From IMG/VR virus record IMGVR_UViG_3300017912_002752: a stretch of DNA of 64,000 bases; one strand, written 5' to 3'. Below, piece after piece: positions 14,454-31,947 of this stretch (the stretch's first letter is position 1; each line of letters starts with the position of its first letter). This DNA comes from a virus. Lineage: Duplodnaviria > Caudoviricetes. The notes beneath the pieces were generated by a model, which had not been told where the DNA came from, did not search any database, and saw only the letters and a list, made by a program, of their open reading frames with translations. The position numbers were made by a program, and so were the translations under genes.

Positions 14454-14471
14454 TTATATAAATTTAGAGGG

Positions 14472-14630
14472 TTATGATGATAAGTCATCAACTTTTTCTT
14501 TGAAATCAACAAATGCTTTTGCAAATGCTTTTTTTGTCTTAGGGTCTAACTTGTTAATGTTCTTAAGTGCTTTCTTATACATGATAGAAAGGTCTACTGA
14601 TATGTCCTGTAAGATTTCACCTTTATCCAT
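14472..14630 (-). CDS. Small hypothetical protein (52 aa; below the ORF-track cutoff)
   Basis: MDKGEILQDISVDLSIMYKKALKNINKLDPKTKKAFAKAFVDFKEKVDDLSS; TAATG coupling to the upstream gene. Confidence 0.65.
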   Translation of the reverse strand: MDKGEILQDISVDLSIMYKKALKNINKLDPKTKKAFAKAFVDFKEKVDDLSS

Positions 14631-15651: not shown

Positions 15652-15664
15652 AATTATTCCCTAT

Positions 15665-16297
15665 CTAAAAACATTCACAATAACCACCAACTTCACAGAT
15701 GATGTCTCTCATGATATCTTGTGCTTTGTTATATCTATAAGTATCCTGTTTTCTTTCAATACCTTCTTTTAATACACCTTCATTTTTTGGTGACATAAAT
15801 GCCCCATGAGTTGAAGGGTTGGATACAAAGTCCCAACAAATTAGTTCAAAGTCATTTTCTACTGCAACAGTTCCATCTTCACTAATCTGTTTTACCGAAC
15901 CCATACCTCTTGATGAAATACCAACCGTACATCCTGCGTTGATTATTTCTTGTAATATTTTTCCAGTTGGTGTGTTTAAAATCTCTACTGTACCAACCAC
16001 ATCGTCACCACGCCACTTTACATCTCTTACAATATGAGATGTATTTTTTAATTCTACTACTGAAGACTCTGGATGGTCAAGTTCACCATATGCTCTATTC
16101 TCGGCAATTTCTCTACCAAGATATTTGGTAACTTCTCGTTTAAGAATATCTTTTGGATAGACTCTACCATTTTGATTTTTAGCATTTGCTCTTTGAAGAA
16201 CACCATTAACTAAAAATCTACCATGTTGATTTTTTGCCTCTTTCAACATAGTAGGAGTTACTTCAAATACCATTGTGTCAATAAGTAATTCTTTCAT
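15665..16297 (-). CDS. Prohead core protease, T4 gp21-like
   Basis: NQNGRVYP, GELDHP (catalytic His), GISSRGMGS (catalytic Ser), DFVSNPS. Confidence 0.95.
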   Translation of the reverse strand: MKELLIDTMVFEVTPTMLKEAKNQHGRFLVNGVLQRANAKNQNGRVYPKDILKREVTKYLGREIAENRAYGELDHPESSVVELKNTSHIVRDVKWRGDDVVGTVEILNTPTGKILQEIINAGCTVGISSRGMGSVKQISEDGTVAVENDFELICWDFVSNPSTHGAFMSPKNEGVLKEGIERKQDTYRYNKAQDIMRDIICEVGGYCECF

Positions 16298-16447
16298 CTA
16301 GCCTTCCCATTGTTTTTTCTTACGATATAAATCAAAGAATACTCTTGCTAATTCATGTCGAATTAGTTTTCTGATTTGTTGGATGTCATTTACTTCCAAC
16401 TCCTCTTTTAAGGTCATCTTTTTATTTTCATTACATCCACAAGACAT
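16298..16447 (-). CDS. Small hypothetical protein (49 aa; below the ORF-track cutoff)
   Basis: MSCGCNENKKMTLKEELEVNDIQQIRKLIRHELARVFFDLYRKKKQWEG-TAG; fills the gap between flanking genes. Confidence 0.65.
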   Translation of the reverse strand: MSCGCNENKKMTLKEELEVNDIQQIRKLIRHELARVFFDLYRKKKQWEG

Positions 16448-16448
16448 A

Positions 16449-16997
16449 TTATGCGCTCAGTTCTTTTAGTTGTCGTGCAACTTTTAACATTCTTTCAGAA
16501 ATTTTTCCAAATCTTCTTTGAGTGGATTTCCAATATTGTCCATTGTGAACTCCCATCTCAGTTTTAAGTTTAGAGTTTTGATTTACAATCTTAGTTATTT
16601 CCCACATCAATCTATTAATCTCTTTGATTGAGGTGTTTACTTTCTGATGAGCTTTCATTGAGTCATCTCTTTTGTAATCACGATAACTTGCTTCAATCAA
16701 ACTTTCTAATTTTTTTTCTAACTTAGATTCAACCGATTCCATTTTTTTAATATTCTTGTTTGTCTTCTTAGATTTCTTATATCCGAATACTTCTATATGG
16801 TCGTTGTCTAAATCGTCTTCTGATTTAGCAAATGCGTAAGGAGTTTTTGGTGGACCTGCTCCACCATCTAAATTACCTGTAACATTTGCTTCGTCCTTAG
16901 TCTCTTCTTCCTCTTCTTCTTGTCCAAGTAGAACAGTTTTCTTTTCTTCTAATTCTTCGAATCTTTTGTCGAGTTGTTCAAGTAAAAATTTAGACAT
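16449..16997 (-). CDS. Hypothetical head-module protein
   Basis: 182 aa between portal and protease; TPYAF motif; LIE site. Confidence 0.6.
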   Translation of the reverse strand: MSKFLLEQLDKRFEELEEKKTVLLGQEEEEEETKDEANVTGNLDGGAGPPKTPYAFAKSEDDLDNDHIEVFGYKKSKKTNKNIKKMESVESKLEKKLESLIEASYRDYKRDDSMKAHQKVNTSIKEINRLMWEITKIVNQNSKLKTEMGVHNGQYWKSTQRRFGKISERMLKVARQLKELSA

Positions 16998-17833
16998 TAT
17001 TTTCTCCTTAGTTCTTCTAATAGTTGGTTATATCTTAAAAGAGCCAAAATCTGATTCTCGTTTACTACTTTGTGCTTAGTTAACTCTCTTATCAGATTAA
17101 TAGTTTCATTTAATTTTATTTGAGTAACTTTATCATTAATTTTAATTGATTTTAGTTCTCTTTTTAATCTAGCTACTTCAGAAACAACAAATTTTCTTAA
17201 GTTACCTGAATTATCAATGTTATTGATGTAATTCTTTAGTATAACTTTTTGTGATTCTGATAAACTTGAATATTTTGAGTTAAATGAATCTACCAAGAAC
17301 TTATATGCTAATAATCTGACCTCTTTTGGTTGTTTAGCATACTCTTTATTTGAAGTGTCTTCTTTTATCACAACTTTATCTGTTGTAATCGCTTCAAATA
17401 TTGTACTTTTACATTCAACATACTCTTTTGGTGAATTTGATTCTGTATGTTCAAACAATTTGTATGCTGATGCCAATTCTTTGTAATTATTAACTCTATA
17501 TTTAAAGAAGTCCTCAATTATATAAGAATCTTTTATTGATTTAATCAAATTATATTTTTCTTTCTTAAGATTTGTTTCATTTAACTTAGCTCGTTCTTTT
17601 AAAACTATATTTAAAAACTCTTGTGCTTTATATTGTGAATCAAAGTTCTCTTTTGTAAGAGCTTGGTACAATTTTAATTCCGTAGCAAGTTGAGAACCTT
17701 TTCTAAAGTGTTTTTTTATAATTTGAGTTGCATAGCAGGGTTTATCTGACAATGTATCAGAGGCAATCTGTCGAACTAATAGTTCAAAGATAATACCTGT
17801 GTTTTTAAATTTACTATGTTTTAATTTGCTCAT
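16997..17833 (-). CDS. Hypothetical head-module protein
   Basis: 278 aa, helical; starts KLKHSKFKNTGIIFELLVRQI; directly downstream of the portal. Confidence 0.65.
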   Translation of the reverse strand: MSKLKHSKFKNTGIIFELLVRQIASDTLSDKPCYATQIIKKHFRKGSQLATELKLYQALTKENFDSQYKAQEFLNIVLKERAKLNETNLKKEKYNLIKSIKDSYIIEDFFKYRVNNYKELASAYKLFEHTESNSPKEYVECKSTIFEAITTDKVVIKEDTSNKEYAKQPKEVRLLAYKFLVDSFNSKYSSLSESQKVILKNYINNIDNSGNLRKFVVSEVARLKRELKSIKINDKVTQIKLNETINLIRELTKHKVVNENQILALLRYNQLLEELRRK

Positions 17834-17882
17834 ATCTAATGCCTTGTTACTAACAACTACAATATAAATATCTAAAAAATAA

Positions 17883-19793
17883 CTAAATCGTGTCGTCTAT
17901 TAAATTCTTCTCATCTAAAAGTCCACCCTCATCATTAATTTGGGTATCATCTTTCAAAGATTCTAAGATAACCTTTTTAGTTTTTTTCTTCATTCTACTT
18001 AATGACTTGTTTAACGCTTCAGCTTGTTCATATGCTAAAGGTGAAATCTTATGTTTATCATAAGTGGTTTCTGGTTTGCCAGCTCTTCTATTAGATTTAT
18101 TACCTAATGGGTCTCTACCAAACGGATTTTTATCAGTTTTATAAGTACCTGCTTTTGGTGGTCTTCCTGCACCATCAAACCCACCCTCGGGTGCGCCGGG
18201 TTCACTTGGAACACCTGAATTTCCGTACTCATTCTGTGATTCATCGTTATTTTCACCACTTTGTTGCAATACTGCCAAATCGTGTGGAGTACCAAATGAT
18301 TCACCTGATTTTATTGGGTCATTTCCTTCGGATTCAATCTGTTCATGTCTAAATCCAAGTTTTAAGTCACCAATAACTTTACCTTGTTCTAATTTCCACT
18401 CATCATCGGACATATTAAAGATGTTTTTGTATACCCATTCTTGAGATACCATCTTAAGGTCTTTTAAGTCACTTGCCAACCTTGTTTTTTCACTCCAAAG
18501 ATTTGCTTTTTCTTGTTCGTATATAATTGATGGGTTTGTTAACTCTAATTCAAAGTTAACTAAGTCAGCATTTTCGTATCCTTGTGAGTATAAGTGGATA
18601 ATAGCAATCTTTGTTAATTCAGAAAGGATAATTTTTTGTAATCTTTCAACAGTTCTTGCGAATCTGATATCCTCTTGTGCTAATGTTGCTTTACCTTCAA
18701 CACCTTCTTCGTATCCAATGAATGCTTTTGGAACTTTAAGTGCTGCCATCATTCTATTTCTTAGATATTCGATATCATCGATACCACCAAACTCCATTCC
18801 TTGTAAAGAATCAATCTCAGTACCACTCTGACCACCTCTTACAGGTAGATAATAGTCTTCTAACATATTCATTAAGTTAAACTTAAGATTGTAGTCACCT
18901 GTATTTTGGTCTAAGTAAGGAACTTTCTTCATTTGGTCAATAATACTTCTCATGTGATTATCAACTTCACTTGGTGGAATGTTACCTACATCAATTTTGA
19001 AGATTCTTTTTTCAGGAGCTCTCATGATTCTGTGAATCATCATTGCGTCTTCCATAAGAGTCAATTGTTTCCAAGTTTTTCGTGCACCTTCTAATAGTGA
19101 ACGACCATATGGAAGGAAGTTTGTATCAGACATCAGTCTAAAGTGTGCAATTTGGTAGAATTCGAATAAGTCTTCTTTCTTATTTGATGCAACACCATGT
19201 GCAGCACCCGCCGCTCCCAATTTGAATCTTACTTCATATGGGTTCGCAGGATTAAAACCTTCTTCTCTTTCTACTTCATATGCTGATAGTGGTGATACAT
19301 TTACAATTCCAACACCTTCTTCTATATCAAGGTGTAAAAAGTAATCACCATATTTGTTCATACCTCTAATCCAAGACCAAAGATTAAATTCAATGTTTAA
19401 TACATCATAAAAAAGGTTGTGTAATATCTTTTTTACATTCTCATCATTGGTTTTGATTCTCAGTACATCACCCATGTCATTTTTTAGGGTACATTCGTCT
19501 GAGTAAATATCTAATACAGATGCGATGATTGAATCTTTATCCATCGCTTCATAATCTGTATATAATTCTAATTTATTTGAATGGTAGTTGAATTGATTAT
19601 TATAGGTTTCCCAATGTTTTCTTGTGGTATGTAATCTACCAAACCTATCATAATAAGATGAACTCCTCAAGTTACCCTGTGATTGTAGTCTTTGAGTATC
19701 GATAGCTTGGGTATTACCTCTACCTATCCTACGAACAACAACCTGAGTGTTGAATAATTTCTTTAATCTACCAAATAGTGATTTATCTGCCAT
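17883..19793 (-). CDS. Portal protein, T4 gp20-like
   Basis: LMEDAMMIHRIMRAPEKRIFKIDVGNIP, MLEDYYLPVRGG..GTEIDSLQG, DDIEYL, ALKVPK, DIRFARTVERLQ. Confidence 0.95.
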   Translation of the reverse strand: MADKSLFGRLKKLFNTQVVVRRIGRGNTQAIDTQRLQSQGNLRSSSYYDRFGRLHTTRKHWETYNNQFNYHSNKLELYTDYEAMDKDSIIASVLDIYSDECTLKNDMGDVLRIKTNDENVKKILHNLFYDVLNIEFNLWSWIRGMNKYGDYFLHLDIEEGVGIVNVSPLSAYEVEREEGFNPANPYEVRFKLGAAGAAHGVASNKKEDLFEFYQIAHFRLMSDTNFLPYGRSLLEGARKTWKQLTLMEDAMMIHRIMRAPEKRIFKIDVGNIPPSEVDNHMRSIIDQMKKVPYLDQNTGDYNLKFNLMNMLEDYYLPVRGGQSGTEIDSLQGMEFGGIDDIEYLRNRMMAALKVPKAFIGYEEGVEGKATLAQEDIRFARTVERLQKIILSELTKIAIIHLYSQGYENADLVNFELELTNPSIIYEQEKANLWSEKTRLASDLKDLKMVSQEWVYKNIFNMSDDEWKLEQGKVIGDLKLGFRHEQIESEGNDPIKSGESFGTPHDLAVLQQSGENNDESQNEYGNSGVPSEPGAPEGGFDGAGRPPKAGTYKTDKNPFGRDPLGNKSNRRAGKPETTYDKHKISPLAYEQAEALNKSLSRMKKKTKKVILESLKDDTQINDEGGLLDEKNLIDDTI

Positions 19794-19867
19794 AATTATG
19801 TTTTCTAATTATAATGTATACTTCTACAATCTATAAATATACAAAAAAAATAGTTTATTTCCAAATT

Positions 19868-21442
19868 TTATAGTAACCAAGTTAAATCTTGTTCATTACC
19901 ATGTACATCTTTCTGTTTCCAAGGGTCTCTACCAAGGTTTCTGTTACTATAAACACCTGGCTGATTCCTTTTAATATGGGTTAATGTTGTTCTTGTTAGG
20001 TCCATTCCTTGTTGTCTTAATTTCAATGCAGTATCTCTAACCCAAAGACCTGTTGAAAATGATATTACCAAGTCATCATTGTATCCTCGTTGTGCCTCTG
20101 CTCGGGATCCTGACCAAATGAACACGAATAATTCATCAATTAATCTTTTTGAACGAATTACAGGCGTTCTTTCTCTCATATATGTATCTAACTTAGATAT
20201 AACAAGCGGTCTTGTTCTTGATGTCATAGAAAAACCAGGCACCATGTCGTCTTTTCTTTTTAAATCAAATCCTTTTCTGAGATGAATGTCCTCATCTATA
20301 TAACCCAAGTCTCTATATGAGTAGTATAAGTTTGTATAGTTTCTATCAATAACCTCTTGTATTACTGCCCAACCAATATTTGCGTTTTCAATCACAAGTA
20401 ATGCGTTGTTCCAATCAGTTGCAACCGAAGTTAAGAATGCACCATATTGTTTTGTTTCAATTTTACCTTTATATTCAGCAACTTGTTCCACACTTTCGAC
20501 ATCAAAAACATGAAACGCAGAATAGTCAGTAGAATCCCCACGAGCAACATCAGCCACAACAACATAGTCACGAGAATAATTAGGATAATCCCATAACCAA
20601 TAGTTACCATCAAAACCTCTTTTTTCAATAGGGTCTTTAACATGCGTCTCTTCATACCATTTTAATGTTGAACCTTCGACAACTGTATAACCTGATGATA
20701 TAAAGTCACAATCACATTCTTGTGCTGCACCTTTTTCACCTAATAATTTTGTCTGTTGGTCTCTCCAACTTTGGTCTCTTTCAGGATGAACTGACCAATG
20801 TAGTTCTATCGGATTCCATTGTTCACCACTTTGACCTTGTAACCATATTTTATGAAACCAATTACCAACACCATTTGGAGTTGATAAAACTATTGCACCA
20901 CCACCAGTTGATAATGTTGATTGTGATGAAGTCCAAATGTCTTCTACATTATCAATGAATGCCGCCTCATCAATTACAAGTAAAGATAATGCTTCAGAAC
21001 GACCAGCATCACCTGCAGCAGATGTTGCTTTGATTTGTGAACCATTCTTTAATCTTAATGATAGTTTATTATCTTCTTCTGTATTACCCCTTAACCACGA
21101 TGGTAAGTTTTGATGCATAAATCTAACTTTAGTAACTAAGTTTTTTGCAACCTCTTGTTTAGTTGCGATTACTAAAACATTCTTGTCTTCATGAAACAAC
21201 ATAAGCCAGAGTGAGTATCCGGCTGATAGTGTTGATATACCTAATTGTCTTGATTTTAAAATTACATTGAATCTGTTTTCAGATACCGCGTCCATCAAGT
21301 CTTCTTGGAAATCATAAAGATTAAAAAGAATTTTTCCACGAGATGGGTGTTGAATGTAACAATACTTTCTGAAAAAGTATACGGGGTCTTTAGCACATTT
21401 AATGTACTCTTCTTTTATGATTTGTTTGATATTCTTCGCCAT
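19868..21442 (-). CDS. Terminase large subunit, T4 gp17-like (probable start at ATG 21442, MAKNIKQ)
   Basis: KSRQLGIST Walker A, LLVIDEAAF Walker B, LSTPNG, ADVARGDSTDYSAF nuclease Asp, NDDLV; the ORF-track start at 21529 overlaps the upstream gene. Confidence 0.95.
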   Translation of the reverse strand: MAKNIKQIIKEEYIKCAKDPVYFFRKYCYIQHPSRGKILFNLYDFQEDLMDAVSENRFNVILKSRQLGISTLSAGYSLWLMLFHEDKNVLVIATKQEVAKNLVTKVRFMHQNLPSWLRGNTEEDNKLSLRLKNGSQIKATSAAGDAGRSEALSLLVIDEAAFIDNVEDIWTSSQSTLSTGGGAIVLSTPNGVGNWFHKIWLQGQSGEQWNPIELHWSVHPERDQSWRDQQTKLLGEKGAAQECDCDFISSGYTVVEGSTLKWYEETHVKDPIEKRGFDGNYWLWDYPNYSRDYVVVADVARGDSTDYSAFHVFDVESVEQVAEYKGKIETKQYGAFLTSVATDWNNALLVIENANIGWAVIQEVIDRNYTNLYYSYRDLGYIDEDIHLRKGFDLKRKDDMVPGFSMTSRTRPLVISKLDTYMRERTPVIRSKRLIDELFVFIWSGSRAEAQRGYNDDLVISFSTGLWVRDTALKLRQQGMDLTRTTLTHIKRNQPGVYSNRNLGRDPWKQKDVHGNEQDLTWLL

Positions 21443-21446
21443 ACAT

Positions 21447-22067
21447 CTACTTTTTATCCCTGTCTTTCCTAAAGGAAATTTTCCAATACATTCTTCCGAT
21501 AACGATTGGTTGGAAATCTTGATTAACACCCAAACCTAATCCATATACATTATCTTTTTTAGATTTGTATAACAGGTCTCCTGATAAGAAGTTTATTTGT
21601 GATTTGTTACCACCGACACTTACCCCACCAAACAATTTTGCTTGGTTAAGGTAAATATCATTTGTGATGGTTGTGGTGGGTATTAATACTTGGGAGTCAA
21701 AGTTTCTGCTAAATATCTTATTTTGAGTAATGGTGTCCACAATAGTAATGTAACCCAATGAGTCTAACTTTAAAGTATCTTTATAAACATACTTGCTATA
21801 ATAGTCCTTTAAAATCTCAAGGGTATCAATTTTTGATTTTAATACTATTGTATCTGTTACAGTTTTTGTTTCAATTCTTGTAGTGTATTTTGGTACATAA
21901 ACTTTTTTCTCTACTGTTAAAGTGTCATATCTTGTTTCTATTTTTGTGACAACTCTTTCAGTAGGAATAGTTTCACCACCACCGCAAGTTCTTAAAAAAA
22001 GTAATATACAGAGGACAATGATTATTAAATTTTGGAGCTTAGTTCCAGCATTTTTAAATAGTCCCAT
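21447..22067 (-). CDS. Membrane-anchored protein, possibly spanin-like or other lysis/envelope protein
   Basis: N-terminal hydrophobic helix ending in Cys; DT[LI]-rich region; C-terminal amphipathic beta strands. Confidence 0.4.
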   Translation of the reverse strand: MGLFKNAGTKLQNLIIIVLCILLFLRTCGGGETIPTERVVTKIETRYDTLTVEKKVYVPKYTTRIETKTVTDTIVLKSKIDTLEILKDYYSKYVYKDTLKLDSLGYITIVDTITQNKIFSRNFDSQVLIPTTTITNDIYLNQAKLFGGVSVGGNKSQINFLSGDLLYKSKKDNVYGLGLGVNQDFQPIVIGRMYWKISFRKDRDKK

Positions 22068-22087
22068 TACTATGTACTCCTATGAGT

Positions 22088-22396
22088 TTATTTTTTTGTT
22101 GTTTTTCTTCTAGGTTTTCTACCTCTTCTGGTTTTACCTTTTGCAGCAGATACAACATCTTTTGTTTGTTTACCGACTTCTTTTACTGCGTCAGCAACAT
22201 CACCGAGTTCTTCTTTTACTCGTTTTGCTCTTCTTTTTACTTCTTTAGCAACTTCCTTAGCGTCTTCAACTGCGTCTTCAACCTCATCAGGAATAAAGTC
22301 ACCATCTCTGTCATTAATTTTTCCTTGCTTGTAAAAATAATAGTATACACCTGCTCCAACAAGTAGTACGCCTAAAATAATTAAGAATGTAGTCAT
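22088..22396 (-). CDS. Small membrane protein with coiled coil and basic tail
   Basis: N-terminal TM helix; DRDGDFIPD acidic loop; K/R-rich C-terminus. Confidence 0.6.
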   Translation of the reverse strand: MTTFLIILGVLLVGAGVYYYFYKQGKINDRDGDFIPDEVEDAVEDAKEVAKEVKRRAKRVKEELGDVADAVKEVGKQTKDVVSAAKGKTRRGRKPRRKTTKK

Positions 22397-22458
22397 AATT
22401 TGTCCGTTTTTTGATTATTAATTAAACTTTGATTACTAATATAAATATGTAAATAATT

Positions 22459-23475
22459 TTAATTAGTAGCTTTTGGTATTTCTCTGCAGTATTCTTTTAA
22501 TTTTTCCAAAATATCAACCCATTCATCTTTCCCAAGATATTTAATAAATTCATCATTTGTACTAATTAAACTGTTTTTTAATCTATCCCACTCTTCAAAC
22601 AATTTTTGATTGTTTTCTTCAGTAGCTTGTTCAAAAAACTTTTTTGCACCCCATAAATGAAATAGTTGTGTTGAAATTTCTTCATAAAGTTTATCAGTAG
22701 GTGCGTTATACATTTGATGTTCAAACCCAAGTGGGAATGATAATGCTCTTGTTAATGATTGAGATATAAATCCGTTTCCTCTTGGTATACCTTTTTCGTT
22801 ATATTCTTGTTGTTTGATTAGCGCTGATAGTAACCATTGTTCTATTGTAATTTGGTCACCTGTATCTTCATCTTTTCCATTTTCTTTTGTTATAACAGAT
22901 TTACCCAATTCAGTATAACCACCTTCATTATCTAATACAAATTCAAAGTATGCATCCGTGTAGTCTCTTAAAAAATCCATATCATTAAAAGCGACTGCAG
23001 CACAATTAAGTGGAAATGAATTTTTAAAAGATTCAAGGTCATACTCAGTCCATTCAAAACCTTCTGGTTTATTTAGAAAAGTTGGAAATGGATATGAAGT
23101 TGGTGATTCTGTATGTAATGCAGAAACATTAACAGTTGCAAACACATCATCTGTAAGGTTATGTAATACTAAATCTGTATCGATTATACAAAATGGTTCT
23201 TCTTGGTGTTTCATTACCCAAATTTTAGGTGAAGACCAAAATCTTTTTGATATTCTGTCACTTGGGTATGATTCAAGAACTTCTGTGTTTACTTCATCAT
23301 ATATTGTATCTAATCCAAATTTTTTATATTCAGACAAAGTGTATTCATCTGCATACAATACAATTTTTGATTTTGTTGATACCTTAAGTTTTAAAACACT
23401 AAGTAGTTGTGTTAATAGTTCTAAATCGTTGAAAGATTTACCCTCATCGAGTTTATACGCGTGGATATACTTCAT
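22459..23475 (-). CDS. Putative glycosyltransferase-like (GT-A/DxD) protein
   Basis: LYAD, WSSPKIW, CIIDTDLV (DxD), NCA, IEQW, HLWG resemble nucleotide-diphospho-sugar transferase motifs. Confidence 0.55.
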   Translation of the reverse strand: MKYIHAYKLDEGKSFNDLELLTQLLSVLKLKVSTKSKIVLYADEYTLSEYKKFGLDTIYDEVNTEVLESYPSDRISKRFWSSPKIWVMKHQEEPFCIIDTDLVLHNLTDDVFATVNVSALHTESPTSYPFPTFLNKPEGFEWTEYDLESFKNSFPLNCAAVAFNDMDFLRDYTDAYFEFVLDNEGGYTELGKSVITKENGKDEDTGDQITIEQWLLSALIKQQEYNEKGIPRGNGFISQSLTRALSFPLGFEHQMYNAPTDKLYEEISTQLFHLWGAKKFFEQATEENNQKLFEEWDRLKNSLISTNDEFIKYLGKDEWVDILEKLKEYCREIPKATN

Positions 23476-23522
23476 AACTTTTTGTTTTGTTTATATATAA
23501 ATATTAAAATAAATTTAATGAA

Positions 23523-25274
23523 TTACCAAGTTCTACAAGCCCAATATCTTGCCTTGTGTCTTGGACCAGGATTGTCACAATTATGTCTTGACCTAAATGC
23601 TTTTCTTCTTGCAGGGTCAGACTTTTTGATTCTCATGGTTTTTTCACCACCTTTACCTTTGTGACCAAAGTTTACTTTTACTACATTACCTTTTGGATTC
23701 TTAACATAGACTTTGAACTTTTTAACATCACCTTGCATTATCTTACCAAGTTTTACATCTCTACCTTGATACTCTGCTTCATTGATATCTGCTTTGTATT
23801 CTCTCATGAATTCTACAAACTCTTTGACATCTTGGTAATTTTCTACATCATATTCTTCGATTGATTCTTTTTTACCTTTTTTACCTTTTGCTTTGTATCC
23901 ACTTGCGAATGCTGCTCTTCTTTGTGCGTCACTTGAAAATCCTTCATAGATAGATTTAAGATACTTTAAAAACTCTCTATCATTTTTCATATCTTTAAAA
24001 TCAGGGTCTGAAAATATATTCTTGATGAAATCTTTTGCGTCTTTAGAATCTTGTCTAATTTGGTCTATCGTTTTAAACATTCCTTCGTTTACTGATTCTT
24101 CTATGTATCCTTGTTTTTTTAAATCTTTTCTAAATGACTCTAAGTCTTTTTTGTTTTTAAAAATTTTGATACCAAAGAAATCACTTCCGTCTTTGTGCTT
24201 TTGTTTACCATCGTGATAAGAAATTGTATATTTTGATTTACCAATACCATCTTGTTGTCTAAATCTTTTTTTACCTTCATCTATGTATCTAACATTCTTT
24301 TTAACTATCATTGTGATACCACCCAAATCTTTTGCCCACTTTTCAGCATCTTTCTTATCTTTGTAAGCTGCGGTTGTTACTGGTTTTACTCCTTTTTTTG
24401 GTGAGTACAATACAACATATGCTTCGTTTATTGATTCTTTCAAGTTAATTTTAAAACTAATTTCTCTCTTATTTGCATCATACTGCTTTTTAACTTGTCT
24501 TTCTATTTCATTATATTTATCAGAATCTTTAGCAGAATTACCTCTATCAATTTTTAATTTTTTAGCTATCATTTGTACTACATCATCAGAACCTTTAGTT
24601 CTCATTTTTGGGCCATACATTTTTACTTTGAATGATTTTTTTATACTTCCTTCGTTTACTGATTCATCTACTTTGTATTTGTAGATTACATCACTTCTAT
24701 CTTTTAAGTTTGTTTTATTTCTTTGAAAATCGTAATTAGGATTTGCAGTAGTTGCTTTTGCAAACTTACCATTCTTTAAGTAAAATGTACCAATACGAGA
24801 ATTATTATCATCAGTTACATAGAATGTTGCATTTTTCTTTTGTTTTGATAACTTAATAATATCAGTAAGATTTTTAGCCTTTACCCAATCACCGTATCCT
24901 TCGTTTACTGATTCTTTCTTTATCACACTAAATGCAACATTTACCATTTTAGGTAAAGAAAGTTTACCAAACTTATCTTTGTTGGATTTGTTGATTGCGT
25001 CATAGACTTTAACTATTGCTGACGCTGAGAACATATCAACTCTCATCATTTTACCACTCTTTGGGTCTTTGATTTTTTTGTTTTGTTTTTTGTTAACGAT
25101 ATCTCTTAATTGTGAAATTACTTCAGGTTCAGATACTTCGTTTACAAATGACTTTGCGTAAGGATTAGAAATCACTTTACCTAACTCAGGTGTGAATCCA
25201 TATTTGTCTTCCATAAATGATTTAACATTTTGGTACTCTTCCTTAATGATGTGTTTGAGTTGGTTCTTATCCAT
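23523..25274 (-). CDS. Modular basic capsid-internal-like polyprotein
   Basis: Starts MDKNQLKHIIKEE; Lys-rich modules separated by FVNE/ESVNE/ESINE/YIDE/DINE; C-terminal KVNFG...FRSRHNC...YWAC..W module. Confidence 0.6.
   Translation of the reverse strand: MDKNQLKHIIKEEYQNVKSFMEDKYGFTPELGKVISNPYAKSFVNEVSEPEVISQLRDIVNKKQNKKIKDPKSGKMMRVDMFSASAIVKVYDAINKSNKDKFGKLSLPKMVNVAFSVIKKESVNEGYGDWVKAKNLTDIIKLSKQKKNATFYVTDDNNSRIGTFYLKNGKFAKATTANPNYDFQRNKTNLKDRSDVIYKYKVDESVNEGSIKKSFKVKMYGPKMRTKGSDDVVQMIAKKLKIDRGNSAKDSDKYNEIERQVKKQYDANKREISFKINLKESINEAYVVLYSPKKGVKPVTTAAYKDKKDAEKWAKDLGGITMIVKKNVRYIDEGKKRFRQQDGIGKSKYTISYHDGKQKHKDGSDFFGIKIFKNKKDLESFRKDLKKQGYIEESVNEGMFKTIDQIRQDSKDAKDFIKNIFSDPDFKDMKNDREFLKYLKSIYEGFSSDAQRRAAFASGYKAKGKKGKKESIEEYDVENYQDVKEFVEFMREYKADINEAEYQGRDVKLGKIMQGDVKKFKVYVKNPKGNVVKVNFGHKGKGGEKTMRIKKSDPARRKAFRSRHNCDNPGPRHKARYWACRTW
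24082..24914. repeat. Dispersed exact 17-nt direct repeat ccttcgtttactgattc (three copies: 24082, 24649, 24898)
   Basis: Read directly; encodes E-S-V-N-E-G; near copy at 24422. Confidence 0.9.
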
Positions 25275-25282
25275 GTTGGTCC

Positions 25283-26824
25283 TTAACTTGCGTACTTCAT
25301 TAATTCTTTAACTTTCTTTTCCATATCAGATACTTTGAGTCCGTATGTGTTTGCCATTAACTCTTTCATGTATCCTGCTTTAAGAAAGTTTTGTAATTCT
25401 TGTTTGGTAGCTACTGATGATTTGAAATCATTTTTTGCAATCTTATCTAATTCTTGTGCAGAGATTTTACCTTTCATATAAGCAGTCATTGCGTCATCTT
25501 TGTAATTGTATTTACCTTCCATTATTTCCATTAATGGTAAAAGTTTTACCATTTTTTGAACTGTCCTCACAAATCCTTTATAGTCTTTTTTTTGCATTTT
25601 GAGTACACCATCAATTTCTCTTTTATTCATATTTATGAATTTAGAGATAACTTTTAGTTCTTTTTCATTTGCCCATGGAAAGTCTTTTTCCCAATCCATT
25701 GAACCTTCGTTCAATGATTTCAAATGTTTGATTGTAGATTCTCTCATTGCCTTTGCTAAAGTCTTGATATACTTTAACTCGTCTTTTGCACCTTTATGTT
25801 TAGCATATCTATCTAATCCGAATCCCATCATGATACCTAAAGATAAGTGTAATCTTGCTTTTTTAGCTCTTGGATACTTTCTACCATATGGTGAAGAGTT
25901 AAACCAATCTAACATCGCCTGTGCCATTGGTACAGATAATTTGATTCCTTCTACTTCACGAGTCTGTCCTTTGATTACTCTTTTCAATCCACCTTCTGCT
26001 GAGATTTCATTGATTGTTGATTCTCTCATATTACCATCATAATTCATTGCCCAATTATCAAATCCATCTAACATCTTTGCAATCTGTCTTTCATCTGATG
26101 AACCATATGGGTTGTAATCAAACTTGTCTCTCATTTGAGAAAGTTCTTTTTGTCCAAAGTTTTCGTATCCACCTTTTTGTTTCCATTTTCTCATTAGTCC
26201 TTTTTTAACTTTTGAGATTGCTGAACGAACTTGTGATGGCTTCATTGTTTCATTTACTGTATCTTCTTCTACATTTTCCTTTGTAGTTCTCCAACCACCA
26301 CCTGCAGCTTTATATTGTTTTGCTGCCCATGCATTTGCGTATGCTGATGGATATACATCAAACTTCTTTTTTGCTTGTGCTTTATAGTAAGACCATTTAG
26401 ATGGGTTTGTAGGAACATTCTTTTCAACAAGAACAGATAGGTTTTCTAATAGTTTAGATTCTTTATTTAAAGATTCGTTTTTAAGAGCTTCAATTTTTTT
26501 ACCTAATGGACCACCTACATACATTGATACAAAGAATCCAATTGCATCAAGAATATCGTGCCCATCCCATTTTGCCATTGTTGCTATATCTGCACCTTTA
26601 GACTCAAGACTATCTTCCCATTCTCTTTTACCAAAGTATTTTGCATTTTTAGCTTTTGGAAATAATTTATCTACTTTCTTAGATGTACTATGAAAGTTTG
26701 CGTCTGTCAATGCACCTTTTAAAATAAACATAATTGCGTGATGCGCTTCTGGTGAGGACGCAGATGTACCTTTAAAGTATGCGTCTAAAAATTTCTTTAC
26801 TTTTTTATTTAGTCTTGGATTCAT
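25283..26824 (-). CDS. Modular basic capsid-internal-like polyprotein
   Basis: Modules separated by LVE/TVNE/ESTINE/SLNE/IME; contains YPSAYANAWAAKQYKAAGGGW module. Confidence 0.55.
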   Translation of the reverse strand: MNPRLNKKVKKFLDAYFKGTSASSPEAHHAIMFILKGALTDANFHSTSKKVDKLFPKAKNAKYFGKREWEDSLESKGADIATMAKWDGHDILDAIGFFVSMYVGGPLGKKIEALKNESLNKESKLLENLSVLVEKNVPTNPSKWSYYKAQAKKKFDVYPSAYANAWAAKQYKAAGGGWRTTKENVEEDTVNETMKPSQVRSAISKVKKGLMRKWKQKGGYENFGQKELSQMRDKFDYNPYGSSDERQIAKMLDGFDNWAMNYDGNMRESTINEISAEGGLKRVIKGQTREVEGIKLSVPMAQAMLDWFNSSPYGRKYPRAKKARLHLSLGIMMGFGLDRYAKHKGAKDELKYIKTLAKAMRESTIKHLKSLNEGSMDWEKDFPWANEKELKVISKFINMNKREIDGVLKMQKKDYKGFVRTVQKMVKLLPLMEIMEGKYNYKDDAMTAYMKGKISAQELDKIAKNDFKSSVATKQELQNFLKAGYMKELMANTYGLKVSDMEKKVKELMKYAS

Positions 26825-27235
26825 TTATGCTCCTGTCTTAGTATTAGTAGGTGCTTTACCTTTACTTCTGTTTCCACCTTTTTTAGCGTCACCACTTTTT
26901 TTCTGTGCCGCTCTTTTTCTTCTTACAAATGCTGCTCTACCTTTTGGTCCAAGTTTTGCTGCTTTTTCTTGTGATAAACACGCGGCGTATGCACCACCTT
27001 TTTTACCATCACCACACTTACCTAACTTCTGACCATCAGAGCCATATCTATCCCAACCACCGCCTGACGCAGTACCTGTCTTTCCTTTACCGAACCATTT
27101 ACGAAGGTCTTCGTTCATTAGTCCTTCTGAAACTAATCTTTCATATACATCAGAAATGGTGTACTCCAACGCTAATGTGTGTGGGACACCATCTGTTTTG
27201 TATGATTCGTAAGTTTCCTTTATAAAGGTTTTCAT
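26825..27235 (-). CDS. Basic hypothetical protein, probably capsid-internal
   Basis: Starts MKTFIKE (resembles T4 capsid-targeting leaders); LMNE|DLRKWF; C..C with RRKR tail. Confidence 0.55.
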   Translation of the reverse strand: MKTFIKETYESYKTDGVPHTLALEYTISDVYERLVSEGLMNEDLRKWFGKGKTGTASGGGWDRYGSDGQKLGKCGDGKKGGAYAACLSQEKAAKLGPKGRAAFVRRKRAAQKKSGDAKKGGNRSKGKAPTNTKTGA

Positions 27236-27816
27236 TTTTTATCTTCCCATTTTTTGAGATAGTTATTTTTAAAAAGACGAAACTCGTTATCAATCTTCTC
27301 TTCAACCTGTTCCCACGACATATCGTTCCACTCTTCTATTGAACCATCTTCATTAACGAATCTCGCCTTTAATGCCGTCTTTAACGCTTCCTTTTCAATC
27401 TCAGCTTTTCCTAACCAAGATTTCATGTTAGCGTGAATCTTTTCTCTTTCATACTCCTCAAATGTTCCATCAAGTTTATGTTGATGTTCCATTTGTATAA
27501 CACAATCGAAACACATACCATGAATTGTTTTCATCTTGATATCGTTTCGTTTTGGATTTGTACAAGTACAAATATCTTTTTTACAATTTGGAAACTTAGT
27601 TAGTTCATCTCTTAACTTTGAAAGTTTACCAAGTTTAACTTTGTATCCTTTTCTTTGCTCCCAAATATTTCCATCATCATCGGTCCATTGGTCACCAACT
27701 TCCCTTCTGATAACTTCTTTAGTCTCACCAAAACTAACATTAGTTTTAGTTTGACTTTTATGTGTTCCAGCAATCATTTCTTTGACTGCTTTTACATTTT
27801 TCAATTTTTTCGACAT
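27232..27816 (-). CDS. Hypothetical protein with Cys cluster
   Basis: 194 aa; C..(C.C)...HGMCFDC potential metal site. Confidence 0.6.
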   Translation of the reverse strand: MSKKLKNVKAVKEMIAGTHKSQTKTNVSFGETKEVIRREVGDQWTDDDGNIWEQRKGYKVKLGKLSKLRDELTKFPNCKKDICTCTNPKRNDIKMKTIHGMCFDCVIQMEHQHKLDGTFEEYEREKIHANMKSWLGKAEIEKEALKTALKARFVNEDGSIEEWNDMSWEQVEEKIDNEFRLFKNNYLKKWEDKK

Positions 27817-27852: not shown

Positions 27853-30800
27853 TTAATAGAAAAGGCCAAGTATTTGATTGAGTGGTGCAAATGTACCTGT
27901 TAACTTGTATGTACCACCTTTATATGTAAATACAATACCTTCATTTGGTACTATCTTATCTCTACCACCAATACTTTTTAATCTTTCTAATTCCATTTTT
28001 AATTTTGCAATCTTTTTTGGGTCTCCAGACTTTTTAACATCACTAATTGTTTTATCCAATTGTTTCTGAATATCTCTAAGTGCCTTATCAGGATTTACTG
28101 TTAGTGCTGATGACATAAATGACAACACCTCTGCACCAAGTCCTAAGAATATATCTTCAAATGGTTTCATATTATTCTTAGATATTTTTGCGTGGTCTTG
28201 TTTATCGGTCTTGTTTGCCCAATCTAATGTTTTTTTATCTTTGATGAATTTATTATTCAATCTAAATGATTTATCGTAGAATGCCCATCGTTTTACTAAT
28301 CCCATCTTAGTTTTATTATCTAAAGTAGATGGTGAGTTTTTATCTATAAAATTACTCCACCATGCCTGATGATAATCTGCAACTCCATTAGAATCTTTTA
28401 GTTTAAATTCTTTTTGAAGTTTACTTACCTTAGATGAGTAAATCGACTTTTTATTTGATAAATCTTGACTTCTTGGTATTTTAACAACTGGCGGTCCTTG
28501 AATTGTATAATTCTTTTGAACATCTGCATTTACTTGTTTTATCATACCTGCTAAAACTTTAGCATCTGATGTATCTGCTCCAATTGCTTTTCCACTTTCA
28601 TCATATTCCATTGTTCCGTGGAATACTAATAGGGGCTGACCATATGGTACTACATTAACTGACTCCGGCCATATAACTTCAAGGTTCATAAATTTTGAGC
28701 CATCCTTGAATATTTTACTTCGTTGCGCATCGGAGAGTTTTGAAATGGCTGATTCTAAATCTCTCATTGCGAAATTATACGCATCGGTCAACCCACCTCT
28801 ATTAGCAAACTTATCTGCGACACCTTTGATGTCTAATGCGTTAAGTCCTCTGTCTTTGAGGTGTCCTTTATTTCTGGCGGCAATAATACCTCTATCTTTA
28901 CGATATGAGATTGCTAATGCCTGTCCATCTGTTTTCTCTCTTGTAAACTCTAATGTTCCTTCGAGAGCTTTTGATATGATTGTTTTTAAATCACCAAAAG
29001 TTAAATTGATTTCTGTATCGAATGGGTGATTCATATGTCCATATGCTCCACCTTCTGTAATTAGTCCTTCACCTAAGAAGTTTTCTTTTTCTTTGTTCTT
29101 AATCCATAATCCTATTTGTGGACCTTTGATATCTGATGGTACATCTCTACCACCAACTGATAAGTTAAATTTAACAAACTTATCCATATCCTTACCAATT
29201 AACTTTCCAAACTTTTTAATTTGGTCATCTGATAAAGATGTTTTGTTTTGTGCGTTTTTATATACAACAATATCATCAGGTCTAAATGACTGAAGTGATA
29301 CTAAGAATACTATATTGTTTTTTTCTTCGTTTGAGTATGTAAGTTTGTTTAATACTTTTGATAATACTACGGGTGAGTTTTTAGATAATATTGACGACAA
29401 GAATAAAATGTAATCATTATCATTTGGATATGGTTTTGATACTTTTAGATTTGGAAGTATCTGTTGTGTAAATCCAAGCTTATCACTTATCTCTAAATAC
29501 TTAGAAGGATTCTTTGCTTTCTTTATAGACTTAACAAACTCATCTCTGATTCTTTCAGCACTTATACCTTTTAGTGATGGGTCACTTTGAAGTGCGTCAT
29601 GTAGTTCTTTATCAAGTTTACCACCTGTACTTGCTTGGAATCTTAATGCTCTTAATTTTCTAAGTGGGTCTTCATCAAATCTTTCTGATGCTTTACCAAC
29701 TGTTCTAATGTTTTTCTTTTTAAGGTCTGCAATACCACCAACTAAATCAACGATTTCTTTTTTATCAATATCATAGAATAATGCGTTGATAGTTAAATCT
29801 CTTCTTCGTACATCACCTTCGATATCTGTATAATCAACTGACGATGGTCTTCTGCCTTTACCGATATCTTTTCTAAATGTTGCAATCTCATGACCACCTA
29901 CCATTACAACTCCAAATGATTTACCAACCTCAACAGTTTTCATTCCTGTGTCTTTTGCAATCTTTAAAACTTCATCAGGTTTTGCGTCTGTTGCCAAATC
30001 ATAATCTTTTGGTGATTTACCGAGTATTGCGTCTCTTACTGCTCCACCAACTACATATAGCTTTTTACCATTCTTTTTAAATGCTTTGTGAATCTTTTGA
30101 ATATCAGATGGTATCTTTAACAATTGTTTTGCTTCATTTATTAAATCGTATCTTTCTAAAGATTCTTTTAATGTACCTGTTGTTTCTTGTTCTTTCTTAG
30201 GTTCATCGTCAAGTAGATTCTCTCTATCTCTTTCACCACTCATAGGTTTGCCAGGTTCTAAGAAGTTTAAGAACTCATATCCTAATTGTAGTGCAACACC
30301 TTTAATATGGTCTGCCCATTTTTTATATGCCGCAAGACCTTGTAAATCATCACCATATCTTACTGATAATGCGTCAAGACCTGCTTTACCACTTGGAAAG
30401 AATGATACTTGATATCTACCTGGTCCTTTTGGGTATTCTGTATCTGTAAAAGATTCCATTGAGTCTTCATCCATTAGATAGTCTATAATATCATATCCGA
30501 GAGTTCCAATTACCTCTTCCATCTCAGACTTGAATGTTTTCATATCACCATATAAAAAACCTGGTCCATCGTCAACACCTTGTGAGTTACCACCAATTGA
30601 TGTATTCGTTGTTGATTCAGATAACATTTTATTAATATTGATTGTTTCAAAAAATGATTCCATTACGGATTCTAACTTTGATAATCTGCCTGAAATAAGA
30701 TTAAATATTTTTGGGTCAAACTTACCATATACTTTTTTGAAGAATGCTTTTCTTTTAGACTCATCACCTTTTGACATCCCATCACGAACTGCAGTTCCAC

Positions 30801-31275
30801 TTATGTTACCAAATGATGGTGATACATAAACATATCCTTTATCTTTGTAGCCAGTATCCACATCACCTTTTTTGTACATTGAGAAATATTTCTGATAACC
30901 TGGACTTGCTAATCTACTTGCATCTTTTTTTCCTACTACTGTAATGAATGCAGTTGTCTTTTCAGGAAACTTGTCCATTACTTCATTTGGAGCATATGGG
31001 TTTTTAACTTGAACAATTTTATTAGAAGGGATTCTAAACATTTTAGTCATCACTTCTTTTTTCTCTTTGAAATTAAAAGGATGCCTTGGACCACCTTGTT
31101 TATTTGATGTACCTATGAATACATTGTTTTTACCAAACTTACCAACAAGATGTTTGTAAACTTCAGCGTGACCAGAATGAAATGGTTGGAATCTACCTGA
31201 GTAGACCACCACTTCTTTTTTGATGTCTTCTTTTAGTATAGAGTCTACTACCCAATTTGTTAATGTTTGTCCCAT
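27853..31275 (-). CDS. Multidomain protein: HxGH nucleotidyltransferase + class II CCA-adding/poly(A) polymerase domain + ATP-dependent ligase-like domain
   Basis: GRFQPFHSGH...ISGTAVR; VGGAVRD...DYD, RRDLTINAL, EDPLR, ERIRDE; EKTDG, NLEV, EGIVF, YK. Confidence 0.8.
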   Translation of the reverse strand: MGQTLTNWVVDSILKEDIKKEVVVYSGRFQPFHSGHAEVYKHLVGKFGKNNVFIGTSNKQGGPRHPFNFKEKKEVMTKMFRIPSNKIVQVKNPYAPNEVMDKFPEKTTAFITVVGKKDASRLASPGYQKYFSMYKKGDVDTGYKDKGYVYVSPSFGNISGTAVRDGMSKGDESKRKAFFKKVYGKFDPKIFNLISGRLSKLESVMESFFETININKMLSESTTNTSIGGNSQGVDDGPGFLYGDMKTFKSEMEEVIGTLGYDIIDYLMDEDSMESFTDTEYPKGPGRYQVSFFPSGKAGLDALSVRYGDDLQGLAAYKKWADHIKGVALQLGYEFLNFLEPGKPMSGERDRENLLDDEPKKEQETTGTLKESLERYDLINEAKQLLKIPSDIQKIHKAFKKNGKKLYVVGGAVRDAILGKSPKDYDLATDAKPDEVLKIAKDTGMKTVEVGKSFGVVMVGGHEIATFRKDIGKGRRPSSVDYTDIEGDVRRRDLTINALFYDIDKKEIVDLVGGIADLKKKNIRTVGKASERFDEDPLRKLRALRFQASTGGKLDKELHDALQSDPSLKGISAERIRDEFVKSIKKAKNPSKYLEISDKLGFTQQILPNLKVSKPYPNDNDYILFLSSILSKNSPVVLSKVLNKLTYSNEEKNNIVFLVSLQSFRPDDIVVYKNAQNKTSLSDDQIKKFGKLIGKDMDKFVKFNLSVGGRDVPSDIKGPQIGLWIKNKEKENFLGEGLITEGGAYGHMNHPFDTEINLTFGDLKTIISKALEGTLEFTREKTDGQALAISYRKDRGIIAARNKGHLKDRGLNALDIKGVADKFANRGGLTDAYNFAMRDLESAISKLSDAQRSKIFKDGSKFMNLEVIWPESVNVVPYGQPLLVFHGTMEYDESGKAIGADTSDAKVLAGMIKQVNADVQKNYTIQGPPVVKIPRSQDLSNKKSIYSSKVSKLQKEFKLKDSNGVADYHQAWWSNFIDKNSPSTLDNKTKMGLVKRWAFYDKSFRLNNKFIKDKKTLDWANKTDKQDHAKISKNNMKPFEDIFLGLGAEVLSFMSSALTVNPDKALRDIQKQLDKTISDVKKSGDPKKIAKLKMELERLKSIGGRDKIVPNEGIVFTYKGGTYKLTGTFAPLNQILGLFY

Positions 31276-31288: not shown

Positions 31289-31609
31289 CTATCTTTTTAC
31301 AAACTTTGTAGGTATGAAATGTCTAAATTCAGAAATTGTTGGTTTTTCCAATTCTCCTGTTGCTATACTTCCTGTTGGCCACAGATTGTGTAATTCTTCT
31401 TCTGTTGAAAAAGATGATGTAGTGATTGTATCTGGAAAATTTCTTAAAAAGTTTTTTTGATTTACTACATTTTGTTTTTCATCTTCGTCATTGTTTTCTA
31501 ATGCTCTTTGATATGCAATATCTAACTCTTTAAGTTTTCTATCTCGTCTAAATCTAAAGTGTCCTTCAAATTTCCACAATGCAAATTCTTTATTAAAATA
31601 AAATCCCAT
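31289..31609 (-). CDS. Tail fibre assembly chaperone-like protein
   Basis: R..RDRKLKELD...RALE...K..LRNFP pattern; downstream of the giant fibre gene. Confidence 0.6.
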   Translation of the reverse strand: MGFYFNKEFALWKFEGHFRFRRDRKLKELDIAYQRALENNDEDEKQNVVNQKNFLRNFPDTITTSSFSTEEELHNLWPTGSIATGELEKPTISEFRHFIPTKFVKR

Positions 31610-31947
31610 TATACAATTCCTTTTTCTTCACAATATTCTTTAAATGTAAGGTTAAAAGAACCTGTAACAGGTCGAAGTGAACCACTTGGTATATAACTAC
31701 CACTAGCGAACCCATCGTAGTCGGTATCCCATGTCCATGAATAATCATCCAAATTTGGTGGTAATTCACTTCTTGTTACTATTTTGTATTTTACACCTGT
31801 TGGTAGGTCTCTTTTTGCAACCCATTCTAATCTTGCTTCAAAAACAGATGCCGTTGGGTGATTTTCCCAATGACCTGTTAATGATGTCAGAGCTAATGCG
31901 GTTACATCGTCTTCTCTATGTGATAGTATGTATTTTTTTTCTGCCAT
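31609..31947 (-). CDS. Small tail-fibre-associated protein
   Basis: AKRDLPTGVKYKIV..SELP...WTW motif; lies between the fibre and chaperone genes. Confidence 0.5.
   Translation of the reverse strand: MAEKKYILSHREDDVTALALTSLTGHWENHPTASVFEARLEWVAKRDLPTGVKYKIVTRSELPPNLDDYSWTWDTDYDGFASGSYIPSGSLRPVTGSFNLTFKEYCEEKGIV

Follow-up and report, generated by a model that had tools for sequence, protein, structure and literature searches.

What would a phage gain by joining an HxGH nucleotidyltransferase, a CCA-adding enzyme and an RNA-ligase-like domain in one protein, with prohead-protease-type sites at the joints? This question is raised by a minus-strand gene at positions 27853-31275 of a 64,000-nucleotide stretch of virus DNA (Duplodnaviria; Caudoviricetes; IMG/VR record IMGVR_UViG_3300017912_002752), hereafter the window. 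The gene is a single ATG-to-stop open reading frame (ORF) of 1140 amino acids (aa), designated P0001, which an original prediction had described as a three-enzyme fusion for virion-delivered tRNA repair. Our analysis confirmed that the ORF is a fusion of HxGH adenylyltransferase-like, class II CCA-adding and RNA-ligase-like parts. We propose that it encodes a modular RNA-end repair polyprotein that is cleaved at [LI]xE joints, packaged in the head and ejected with the DNA, a reading whose chances we judge to be about even. The enzyme identities and the role in RNA repair are probable; the cleavage and packaging of the polyprotein, argued by analogy with T4, could as readily prove wrong as right.

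One reading frame fuses three enzyme-like parts

A ligase fold had been called for the C-terminal domain (C-domain) from motifs alone, and structure prediction and structure search agreed with that call. An AlphaFold2 model based on an alignment of 48 family sequences had a predicted local distance difference test (pLDDT) score of 93.5 and a predicted template modelling (pTM) score of 0.88. A Foldseek search against the PDB returned only RNA ligases in its top ranks, namely T4 Rnl1 (E 4.6e-3), Trl1, archaeal Rnl3 and T4 Rnl2, with probabilities of at most 0.91. With VIA, an all-against-all aligner, the model matched NgrRnl (5cot, Z 8.8), TbREL1 (8.7), Trl1 (8.2), T4 Rnl2 (8.1) and T4 Rnl1 (8.1), in alignments of 181-207 aa with root-mean-square deviations of 3.8-4.8, while DNA ligases and capping enzymes scored lower at Z 5-7.

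Residues K781, D783, G784, R801, E866, E1112, G1113 and K1124 were invariant in the 48 sequences, which are 39-96% identical to the query, and the K, D and G of motif I were present in most of 150 listed family representatives. The NLEV (E866), LVFHG and EGIVF motifs followed in order, invariant or nearly so across the 48 sequences. In the domain model, motifs Ia, III, IIIa, IV and V lie on predicted strands (62-66, 127-134, 148-157, 379-384 and 387-391). The domain was called ligase-like because the structural scores agree with invariant motifs on the expected strands.

At the sequence level, Pfam, PHROG and PDB-chain searches with the C-domain gave no match even at a threshold of E 10, and its family profile, searched against the PDB, produced spurious eS6 matches only and no solved relative. 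The sole Pfam neighbour of the family is DUF6267, and the whole fold was found only in viral proteins (those with CTP_transf_like, DUF5661 or DUF6267). The domain opens with a near-invariant element, GGAxGHMxHPFD, and in its model motifs IIIa and IV are separated by a purely helical module of some 170 residues. Membership in the named clades Rnl1-Rnl5 was considered and rejected, as there was no sequence-level match and the extra module is an internal helical insert, not a clade-specific appended domain. These results give moderate support to the C-domain as an RNA-ligase-like covalent nucleotidyltransferase of a new clade, set apart from Rnl1-5.

The central module, predicted to be a CCA-adding enzyme, was readily recognized. 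Residues 406-524 matched Pfam PolyA_pol (E 3.9e-31) and residues 565-611 matched PolyA_pol_RNAbd (E 1.6e-5). CCA-adding enzymes in the PDB matched at E 1e-30, and poly(A) polymerases also did so at 1e-24 to 1e-25. The class II motifs GGAVRD, DYD, RRD, EDPLR and ERIRDE could all be read in the sequence. Judged by its sequence, the module is an intact class II tRNA nucleotidyltransferase, predicted to add CCA. The cassette that precedes it (residues 221-371) had no family match in Pfam or PHROG searches and gave a low-confidence AlphaFold2 model.

The N-terminal domain (N-domain) carries the HxGH and ISxTxxR ATP-binding motifs on a Rossmann-like nucleotidyltransferase fold, as GRFQPFHSGH and ISGTAVR, in line with the original prediction. 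Residues 24-103 matched Pfam CTP_transf_like (E 7.9e-6) and residues 17-200 matched PHROG 395, 'cytidyltransferase' (E 3.8e-15). The AlphaFold2 model had a pLDDT above 90 over residues 1-205, and its best folds were NadM, NadD and archaeal NMNAT (VIA Z 11-11.7; Foldseek E 6.5e-6), followed closely by PPAT. Sequence identity to NadM and archaeal NMNAT was 17-24% at Z 11.2-11.7, and PPAT and NaMNAT scored nearly equal. H33 and H36 (HxGH) and S159, T161 and R164 (ISGTxxR) were invariant in family N-domains. From its modelled fold, the domain is likely an NMNAT-like adenylyltransferase.

Table 1. Features of the polyprotein gene and two associated genes. A slash marks a candidate cut.
Feature	Position	Strand	Residues	Remarks
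Whole ORF (P0001)	27853-31275	-	1-1140	1140 aa; stop codon 27853-27855 within
Leader, MGQTLTNWVVDSILKE/D	31228-31275	-	1-16	predicted helix 3-14; [LI]xE end; candidate capsid-targeting sequence or propeptide
ILKE/D			cut after 16	leader end
HxGH nucleotidyltransferase domain, predicted NMNAT fold	30616-31227	-	17-220	last residues MLSE/S
HxGH motif	31168-31197	-	27-36	within N-terminal domain
ISGTAVR	30784-30804	-	158-164	within N-terminal domain
MLSE/S			cut after 220	N-domain end
Middle cassette	30163-30615	-	221-371	common to closest relatives; last residues TLKE/S
TLKE/S			cut after 371	before CCA cassette
CCA cassette	29068-30162	-	372-736	predicted class II tRNA nucleotidyltransferase; opens with 10-aa spacer; last residues FLGE/G
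LINE/A	30133-30144	-	378-381, cut after 381	spacer end; before CCA cassette
GGAVRD	30031-30048	-		within CCA cassette
FLGE/G			cut after 736	before C-domain
Junction pentapeptide GLITE	29053-29067	-	737-741	between CCA cassette and C-domain; [LIV][LIM]xE in this place in 101 of 130 family members
LITE/G	end 29053	-	738-741, cut after 741	before C-domain
Predicted RNA-ligase-fold covalent nucleotidyltransferase domain	27856-29052	-	742-1140	GGAYGHMNHPFD element at its N-terminal start
Motif I, EKTDG	28924-28938	-	780-784	K781
R801; motif III; motif IIIa			801; 866	E866; LVFHG
Helical insert, ~170 aa				between motifs IIIa and IV
Motif IV, EGIVF	27928-27942	-
Motif V, K1124	27904-27906	-	1124
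Downstream partner gene	27232-27816	-		194 aa; Cys-rich Zn-ribbon-like segment; ahead of TerL
Prohead protease, T4 gp21 homologue	15665-16297	-		phrog_207 E 2.6e-50; PDB 5jbl E 1.2e-18; presumed processing enzyme

Family architecture points to RNA repair

An exhaustive HMMER search with the C-domain, with representatives taken as clusters at 50% identity, returned a virus-only family of 1816 cluster representatives at E up to 1e-3 and 604 at E up to 1e-30. The C-domain nearly always occupies the C-terminal end of these proteins, which are 400-1900 aa long. Most family members contain both the HxGH and the ligase-like domain, in either order, and this co-occurrence in both orders speaks for a connection in function. 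In Microcystis phage Mel-JY01, protein WWT39297 is a two-domain form whose junction reads NIIAE/GG.

Among 39 full-length members, Pfam searches found CTP_transf_like in 28, DUF5661 in five, P-loop kinases of the AAA_33/Zeta_toxin/KTI12 type in four, PolyA_pol in three, HD in two and SprT-like in one. The inserts between the end domains of relatives also include ParB-like and basic modules. The fullest set occurs in the 1930-aa protein P0040, which combines, in this order, HxGH, DUF5661, an AAA_33 kinase, HD, CCA and ligase-like modules. The classical healing-and-sealing set consists of kinase, phosphoesterase, CCA-adding enzyme and ligase, and we infer from the architecture of P0040 that the substrate process is RNA repair, most likely of tRNA. 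The RNA- and tRNA-repair reading of the original prediction was thus strengthened, as relatives place P-loop kinase, HD phosphohydrolase and CCA modules between the same end domains.

Module borders coincide with protease-type sites

The tripeptide [LI]-x-E is the cleavage specificity of T4 gp21-type prohead proteases, and P0001 contains six such tripeptides in total, every one at a module border (Table 1). Four of these had been predicted to mark domain borders, and all four stood, MLSE solely by virtue of its L-S-E tripeptide; two more, TLKE (residues 368-371) and FLGE (733-736), had been missed. The positions predicted for EKTDG, LITE and LINE were correct. Between the sites, [LI]xE occurred zero times against about seven expected from shuffling, and the control tripeptides Ex[LI], [LI]xD and [LI]xK were at or above expectation.

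It had also been suggested that relatives might lack the CCA module exactly between these sites, and the closest relatives do miss it exactly between two [LI]xE tripeptides. The proteins of L007, L008, L010, L012 and L013 (760-769 aa) align to residues 1-373 of P0001 and then straight to 734-1140. The L013 junction reads EPKKEQSPENIIKE/GLITE/GGAYGHM, with ENIIKE before GLITE; its counterpart in P0001 reads EPKKEQETTGTLKE/SLERYDLINE/...CCA...NFLGE/GLITE/GGAYGHM, with GTLKE before residue 372. By this residue alignment the CCA cassette is therefore 372-736, starting right after one site and ending with another. A further relative, L006, is a mosaic relative to P0001, with identities of 59% in the N-domain, 93% in the middle and CCA cassettes and 86% in the C-domain, and carries an extra basic cassette between FLDE/ and IFDE/GMIME/GG.

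Sites of the same kind recur across the family. In all seven CCA-bearing family proteins examined, [LIV]xE precedes the conserved (I/V)P(S/A)D(I) motif at the start of the cassette, at a distance ranging from a few residues to about 12, and related loci are alike; [LIVM]xE stands directly before the C-domain in 101 of 130 members. Stand-alone C-domain proteins have a leader of 7-37 residues with an [LIM]xE end just before GG. The placement of module borders at protease-like sites suggests a repair kit carried in the virion.

The modules themselves tend to avoid the tripeptide. Twelve family CCA cassettes contained nine [LI]xE against 33.8 expected (a ratio of 0.27), compared with 22 against 25.9 (0.85) in seven free-standing phage CCA enzymes. 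When three obvious near-duplicates were dropped, the remaining nine cassettes had eight against 25.4 expected (Poisson P ~6e-5). In 132 C-domains, [LI]xE reached 0.47 of expectation, the lowest among polar residues after [LI]x (D 1.08, Q 1.09, K 1.37). Other ORFs of the window had ratios near 1, and head-core ORFs were 2-2.7 fold enriched. ORFs 15079-15651, 16997-17833 and 23523-25274 showed a 2.4-2.8 fold enrichment, as expected of degraded core proteins.

The major capsid protein (MCP; N-terminal part at 11245-11604, minus strand) has a likely maturation site at ELVKE/ASSTG, which is of the form V-x-E, so the motif of the protease may be broader than the [LI]xE that was counted. The MCP propeptide, KWEKTGLLEG, resembles that of T4 gp23, KWKPLLEGEG.

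Leaders and packaging context

P0001 begins with a 16-residue leader that, by its sequence, resembles the T4 capsid-targeting sequence (CTS). Leaders of this type are kept in family members and in the head block of the window, where [LI]xE falls within the first 20 residues of 13 of 19 ORFs, compared with 4 of 24 ORFs elsewhere (Fisher p = 0.0013). In T4, the CTS is a 10-residue leader that gp21 removes and that is sufficient for the loading of foreign proteins into heads; T4 also packages the enzyme Alt, which gp21 trims (PMC9026906). Across the head block (window 9961-27235), most ORF N-termini carry a short leader with an [LI][LI][KN]E end; examples are MDTNSLLNE in the MCP, MAKSDLLKE in a scaffold-like protein, MKLKNLLNE, MIKLKNILNE, MSKFLLE and MKTFIKE, beside MGQTLTNWVVDSILKE in the polyprotein.

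In two cyanophages, S-SZBM1 and S-CREM2, analyses of CsCl-purified virions detected a 'cytidylyltransferase' (PMC9146016, PMC10665884). The S-SZBM1 protein, S-SZBM1_140, is homologous to the P0001 N-domain (hhalign probability 92.6%, 24% identity over 98 columns), and its N-terminus, MRFRQFIIE/A, is CTS-like. The adjoining gene, S-SZBM1_139 (L005 2989-4362), encodes a 457-aa Ala/Lys/Gly-rich low-complexity protein that was likewise detected in virions and looks like cargo of the internal-protein type.

A packaged repair polyprotein and its rivals

We propose the following pathway, in which catalysis, substrates, late synthesis, prohead cleavage, packaging and injection are all inferred. The constant ends would be an NMNAT-fold adenylyltransferase-like domain and an RNA-ligase-like enzyme of a new ATP-dependent clade, with exchangeable cassettes between them, here the 150-aa module without a family match and a complete class II CCA-adding enzyme. 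The polyprotein would be made alongside the late head and packaging genes, and its short N-terminal leader would bring it into the prohead, where the prohead protease would cut it at the junctions into separate enzymes. Ejected with the DNA, these could mend CCA ends and nuclease-broken tRNAs before phage gene expression. Extended to the family, we tentatively suggest that a widespread clade of T4-like aquatic phages carries a mix-and-match RNA-repair kit in its heads, made as a leader-targeted precursor, cut by the protease and injected. The parts released from such a head-carried kit would, with the same reserve, be an NMNAT-like adenylyltransferase, a previously unrecognized RNA-ligase clade and lineage-specific CCA, polynucleotide-kinase-like or HD cassettes.

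Several observations weigh against this proposal. The structural scores of the C-domain (Z about 8-9) are moderate and its Foldseek E-values against the PDB lie above 1e-3. The zero count of [LI]xE in the P0001 cores is partly circular, since the cores were defined as the intervals between sites, and the family counts come from related sequences and are not independent, so their independence is overstated. Depletion had been expected only in members with E at the junction, yet both groups were depleted (E 0.42; M/C/A 0.57); this control did not discriminate, and the depletion of the C-domain therefore does not track the junction residue. The authors of the S-CREM2 study note that virion detection of such proteins is frequent but that carry-over is possible (PMC10665884). 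No TATTTATA late-type motif was found directly upstream of the polyprotein gene. Further points of this kind are those that lend strength to the alternatives below.

The strongest of these is that the same enzymes work as an uncleaved, cytoplasmic multidomain repair protein, like fungal Trl1 or bacterial Pnkp, with [LI]xE serving as linker or helix-capping sequence or marking recombination joints. Fused healing and sealing enzymes are common, and Trl1 structures are among the matches of the C-domain. In 29 of 130 members the E before the C-domain is replaced by M, C or A, and once by N (for example LLLM and LLQC), and the N-domain shows no specific depletion, with [LI]xE at 0.81 of expectation and [LI]xD similar at 0.84. 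In a neighbouring gene, moreover, the codons of the junction motif ES(V/I)NE are near-identical DNA repeats, fitting recombination joints, which the junction motif of the polyprotein could be as well. An uncleaved protein nevertheless leaves four observations unexplained: the 3-4 fold depletion of [LI]xE in the family CCA cassettes, not seen in free-standing homologues; the avoidance of E after [LI]x in the C-domain, stronger than that of any other polar residue; the leaders of stand-alone C-domains, 7-37 aa long and ending in [LIM]xE before GG; and the gene's place at the head of a terminase-portal-protease block in 79 of 80 loci. On balance we consider this alternative unlikely, if worth serious attention.

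A second alternative concerns the chemistry. To our knowledge, no NMNAT-fold enzyme has an established role in RNA or tRNA repair, which counts against the repair reading, and a NAD-related or RNA-capping function is possible. The N-domain might rebuild NAD+ against NAD-depleting defences, or add or remove NAD-type RNA caps, and the ligase-like domain would then be a 5'-adenylylating or capping enzyme and not a strand joiner. The closest structures and sequences of the N-domain are indeed NadM/NadD-type NMN adenylyltransferases, although the profile match to NMNAT in the PDB spans just the first ~55 residues, where the HxGH motif binds ATP. The family joins two adenylyl-transfer domains in either order, the cyanophage authors discuss NAD+ effects, and a review names NMNATs and RNA ligases as untested candidates for post-transcriptional capping, while reporting that E. 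coli NadD and NadR have no capping activity (PMC8131947). The kinase, HD and CCA inserts, however, point to RNA ends, and the window showed no Nampt-type partner gene. We regard this alternative as improbable.

Least credible, and in our view very improbable, is a structural or assembly role of the ligase-like domain, like that of T4 gp63 (Rnl1) in tail-fibre attachment, reflected in the gene's position after a giant fibre gene: the gene does follow the 3533-aa fibre at a distance of three genes, behind an ORF with a weak tail-assembly-chaperone match, and its distant structural neighbours in BFVD include 'RNA ligase 1 and tail fiber attachment catalyst', but a fibre is upstream in only 7 of 80 loci, whereas linkage on the TerL side is nearly universal, and the catalytic residues are invariant.

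Comparison with known systems

Under the packaged repair reading, the nearest functional parallel is T4 Pnkp with Rnl1, together with the Rnl2, Rnl3 and Rnl5 clades. The C-domain shares with these ligases the covalent nucleotidyltransferase fold and motifs I, Ia, III, IIIa, IV and V, and the combination of the ligase-like domain of relatives with kinase, phosphoesterase and CCA modules follows the healing-and-sealing logic of T4 tRNA repair. Unlike the T4 ligases, the P0001 C-domain has no sequence match to any ligase family, its helical module of about 170 aa is internal (between IIIa and IV) and not appended N- or C-terminally, and it has the GGAxGHMxHPFD element and the HxGH linkage. The T4 repair enzymes are early, cytoplasmic and unpackaged, whereas P0001 would be packaged.

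Trl1 of fungi and plants (ligase, kinase and CPDase) likewise holds sealing and healing in one chain, and its ligase domain is among the top structural matches. It differs in its domain order and healing modules, and has neither an HxGH or CCA nucleotidyltransferase nor protease-site punctuation.

With respect to delivery, the T4 CTS cargo (IPI-III and Alt) offers the closest precedent, in that a gp21 homologue is present here, the leader is short with an [LI]xE end, and T4 Alt is packaged and gp21-trimmed (PMC9026906). In contrast to that cargo, P0001 would carry several enzymes in one precursor, to be parted at internal sites. The polyvalent proteins described by Iyer et al. 2017 (PMC5512222) are similar as large multidomain proteins with swappable enzymatic modules and a proposed delivery with DNA. 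A text search of that survey, however, found neither an NMNAT nor a CCA-adding domain, and RNA ligases come up in it solely as never associated with its 2H domains. Polyvalent proteins, whose listed contexts include MuF/portal fusions and anti-restriction modules, also carry their own peptidases, whereas the present T4-like myovirus family has prohead-protease-type sites, with SprT-like in just 1 of 39 members. The cyanophage cytidylyltransferases (S-SZBM1_140 and S-CREM2 ORF154) share virion detection with what is proposed here, S-SZBM1_140 also having the homologous HxGH domain and the CTS-like leader; S-SZBM1_140 differs in its low identity and in having no ligase-like or CCA module.

Literature searches for Mel-JY01, DUF6267 and a cytidylyltransferase-RNA-ligase fusion found no description of the family. 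These comparisons suggest that the ligase clade and the cargo format are both new, though built on known kinds. If the proposal is correct, it adds a large uncharacterized RNA-ligase-like clade, which comprises no fewer than 1816 clusters (50% identity) and no fewer than 540 IMG/VR loci. It would also mean that tRNA repair, hitherto an early-gene function of T4, can be packed beforehand and delivered with the genome. Protease motifs at module joints and their depletion inside modules would provide a sequence-only signature for packaged cargo in uncultured T4-like phages, and the cassette structure a natural example of in-frame enzyme exchange at protease sites. The pairing of NMNAT-like and ligase-like domains may represent a new two-enzyme chemistry on RNA ends, and the link between the two folds may hide RNA-end reactions of a new kind.

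Gene neighbourhood and other observations in the window

The phage is an aquatic, distant T4 relative. Its MCP shares 57% identity with the MCP of Microcystis phage Mel-JY01 and 51% with the one of Flavobacterium phage immuto, and RM378 is further out. On the minus strand, baseplate genes, a primase, an SbcCD fusion, the 3533-aa fibre and two small ORFs precede the polyprotein gene, which is followed by four ORFs without family assignment (including Lys-rich modular proteins), TerL, portal, prohead protease and MCP. Synteny was sampled in 80 IMG/VR loci out of at least 540 confirmed matches. In 79 of these 80, a homologue of ORF 27232-27816 comes directly after the polyprotein gene; TerL was present in 75, with portal and protease beyond it, so that this gene order is largely kept.

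ORF 27232-27816 has no family match; it contains a CKKDICTC...CFDC segment and might act in packaging, for instance as a small terminase. Between the fibre and polyprotein genes, the small minus-strand ORF 31289-31609 gave a weak match to Phage_tail_APC, a tail assembly chaperone family (E 0.0024), and homologues of this ORF and of ORF 31609-31947 were present in just 2 of the 80 related loci. The SbcCD fusion (42604-45774, minus strand) is a 1056-aa ORF that joins SbcD-like (residues 16-343) and SbcC-like (residues 291-1055) parts. Two enzyme-like ORFs lie inside the head block, at 13247-14453 on the minus strand; one resembles methyltransferases (phrog_2675), the other PhyH/2OG-Fe(II) oxygenases (Pfam PhyH, E 8.4e-14). 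No tRNA genes were found in the window.

The T4 late-promoter word TATAAATA was considered and rejected on the coding strand, where it is not used; TATTTATA occurs in coding-strand intergenic gaps instead. Ten of the 11 window matches to TATAAATA are on the plus strand (3926, 9170, 17863, 19832, 22440, 23496, 27837, 42605, 50899 and 62970) and so read TATTTATA on the coding (minus) strand, making the latter a candidate late-promoter word. Judged by position, most or all of them lie in short intergenic stretches immediately ahead of minus-strand genes, such as those for the portal, the fibre and ORF 27232-27816. The total of 11 is not above chance (9.8 expected); the strand bias and placement are striking.

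Near-identical DNA repeats occur at 24071-24103, 24413-24441, 24638-24670, 24890-24918 and 25129-25157, inside the Lys-rich ORF 23523-25274 (583 aa). The repeat core, CCTTCGTTTACTGATTC on the plus strand, encodes ESVNEG on the minus strand, and the module junctions of this ORF therefore share both a peptide motif and a DNA sequence.

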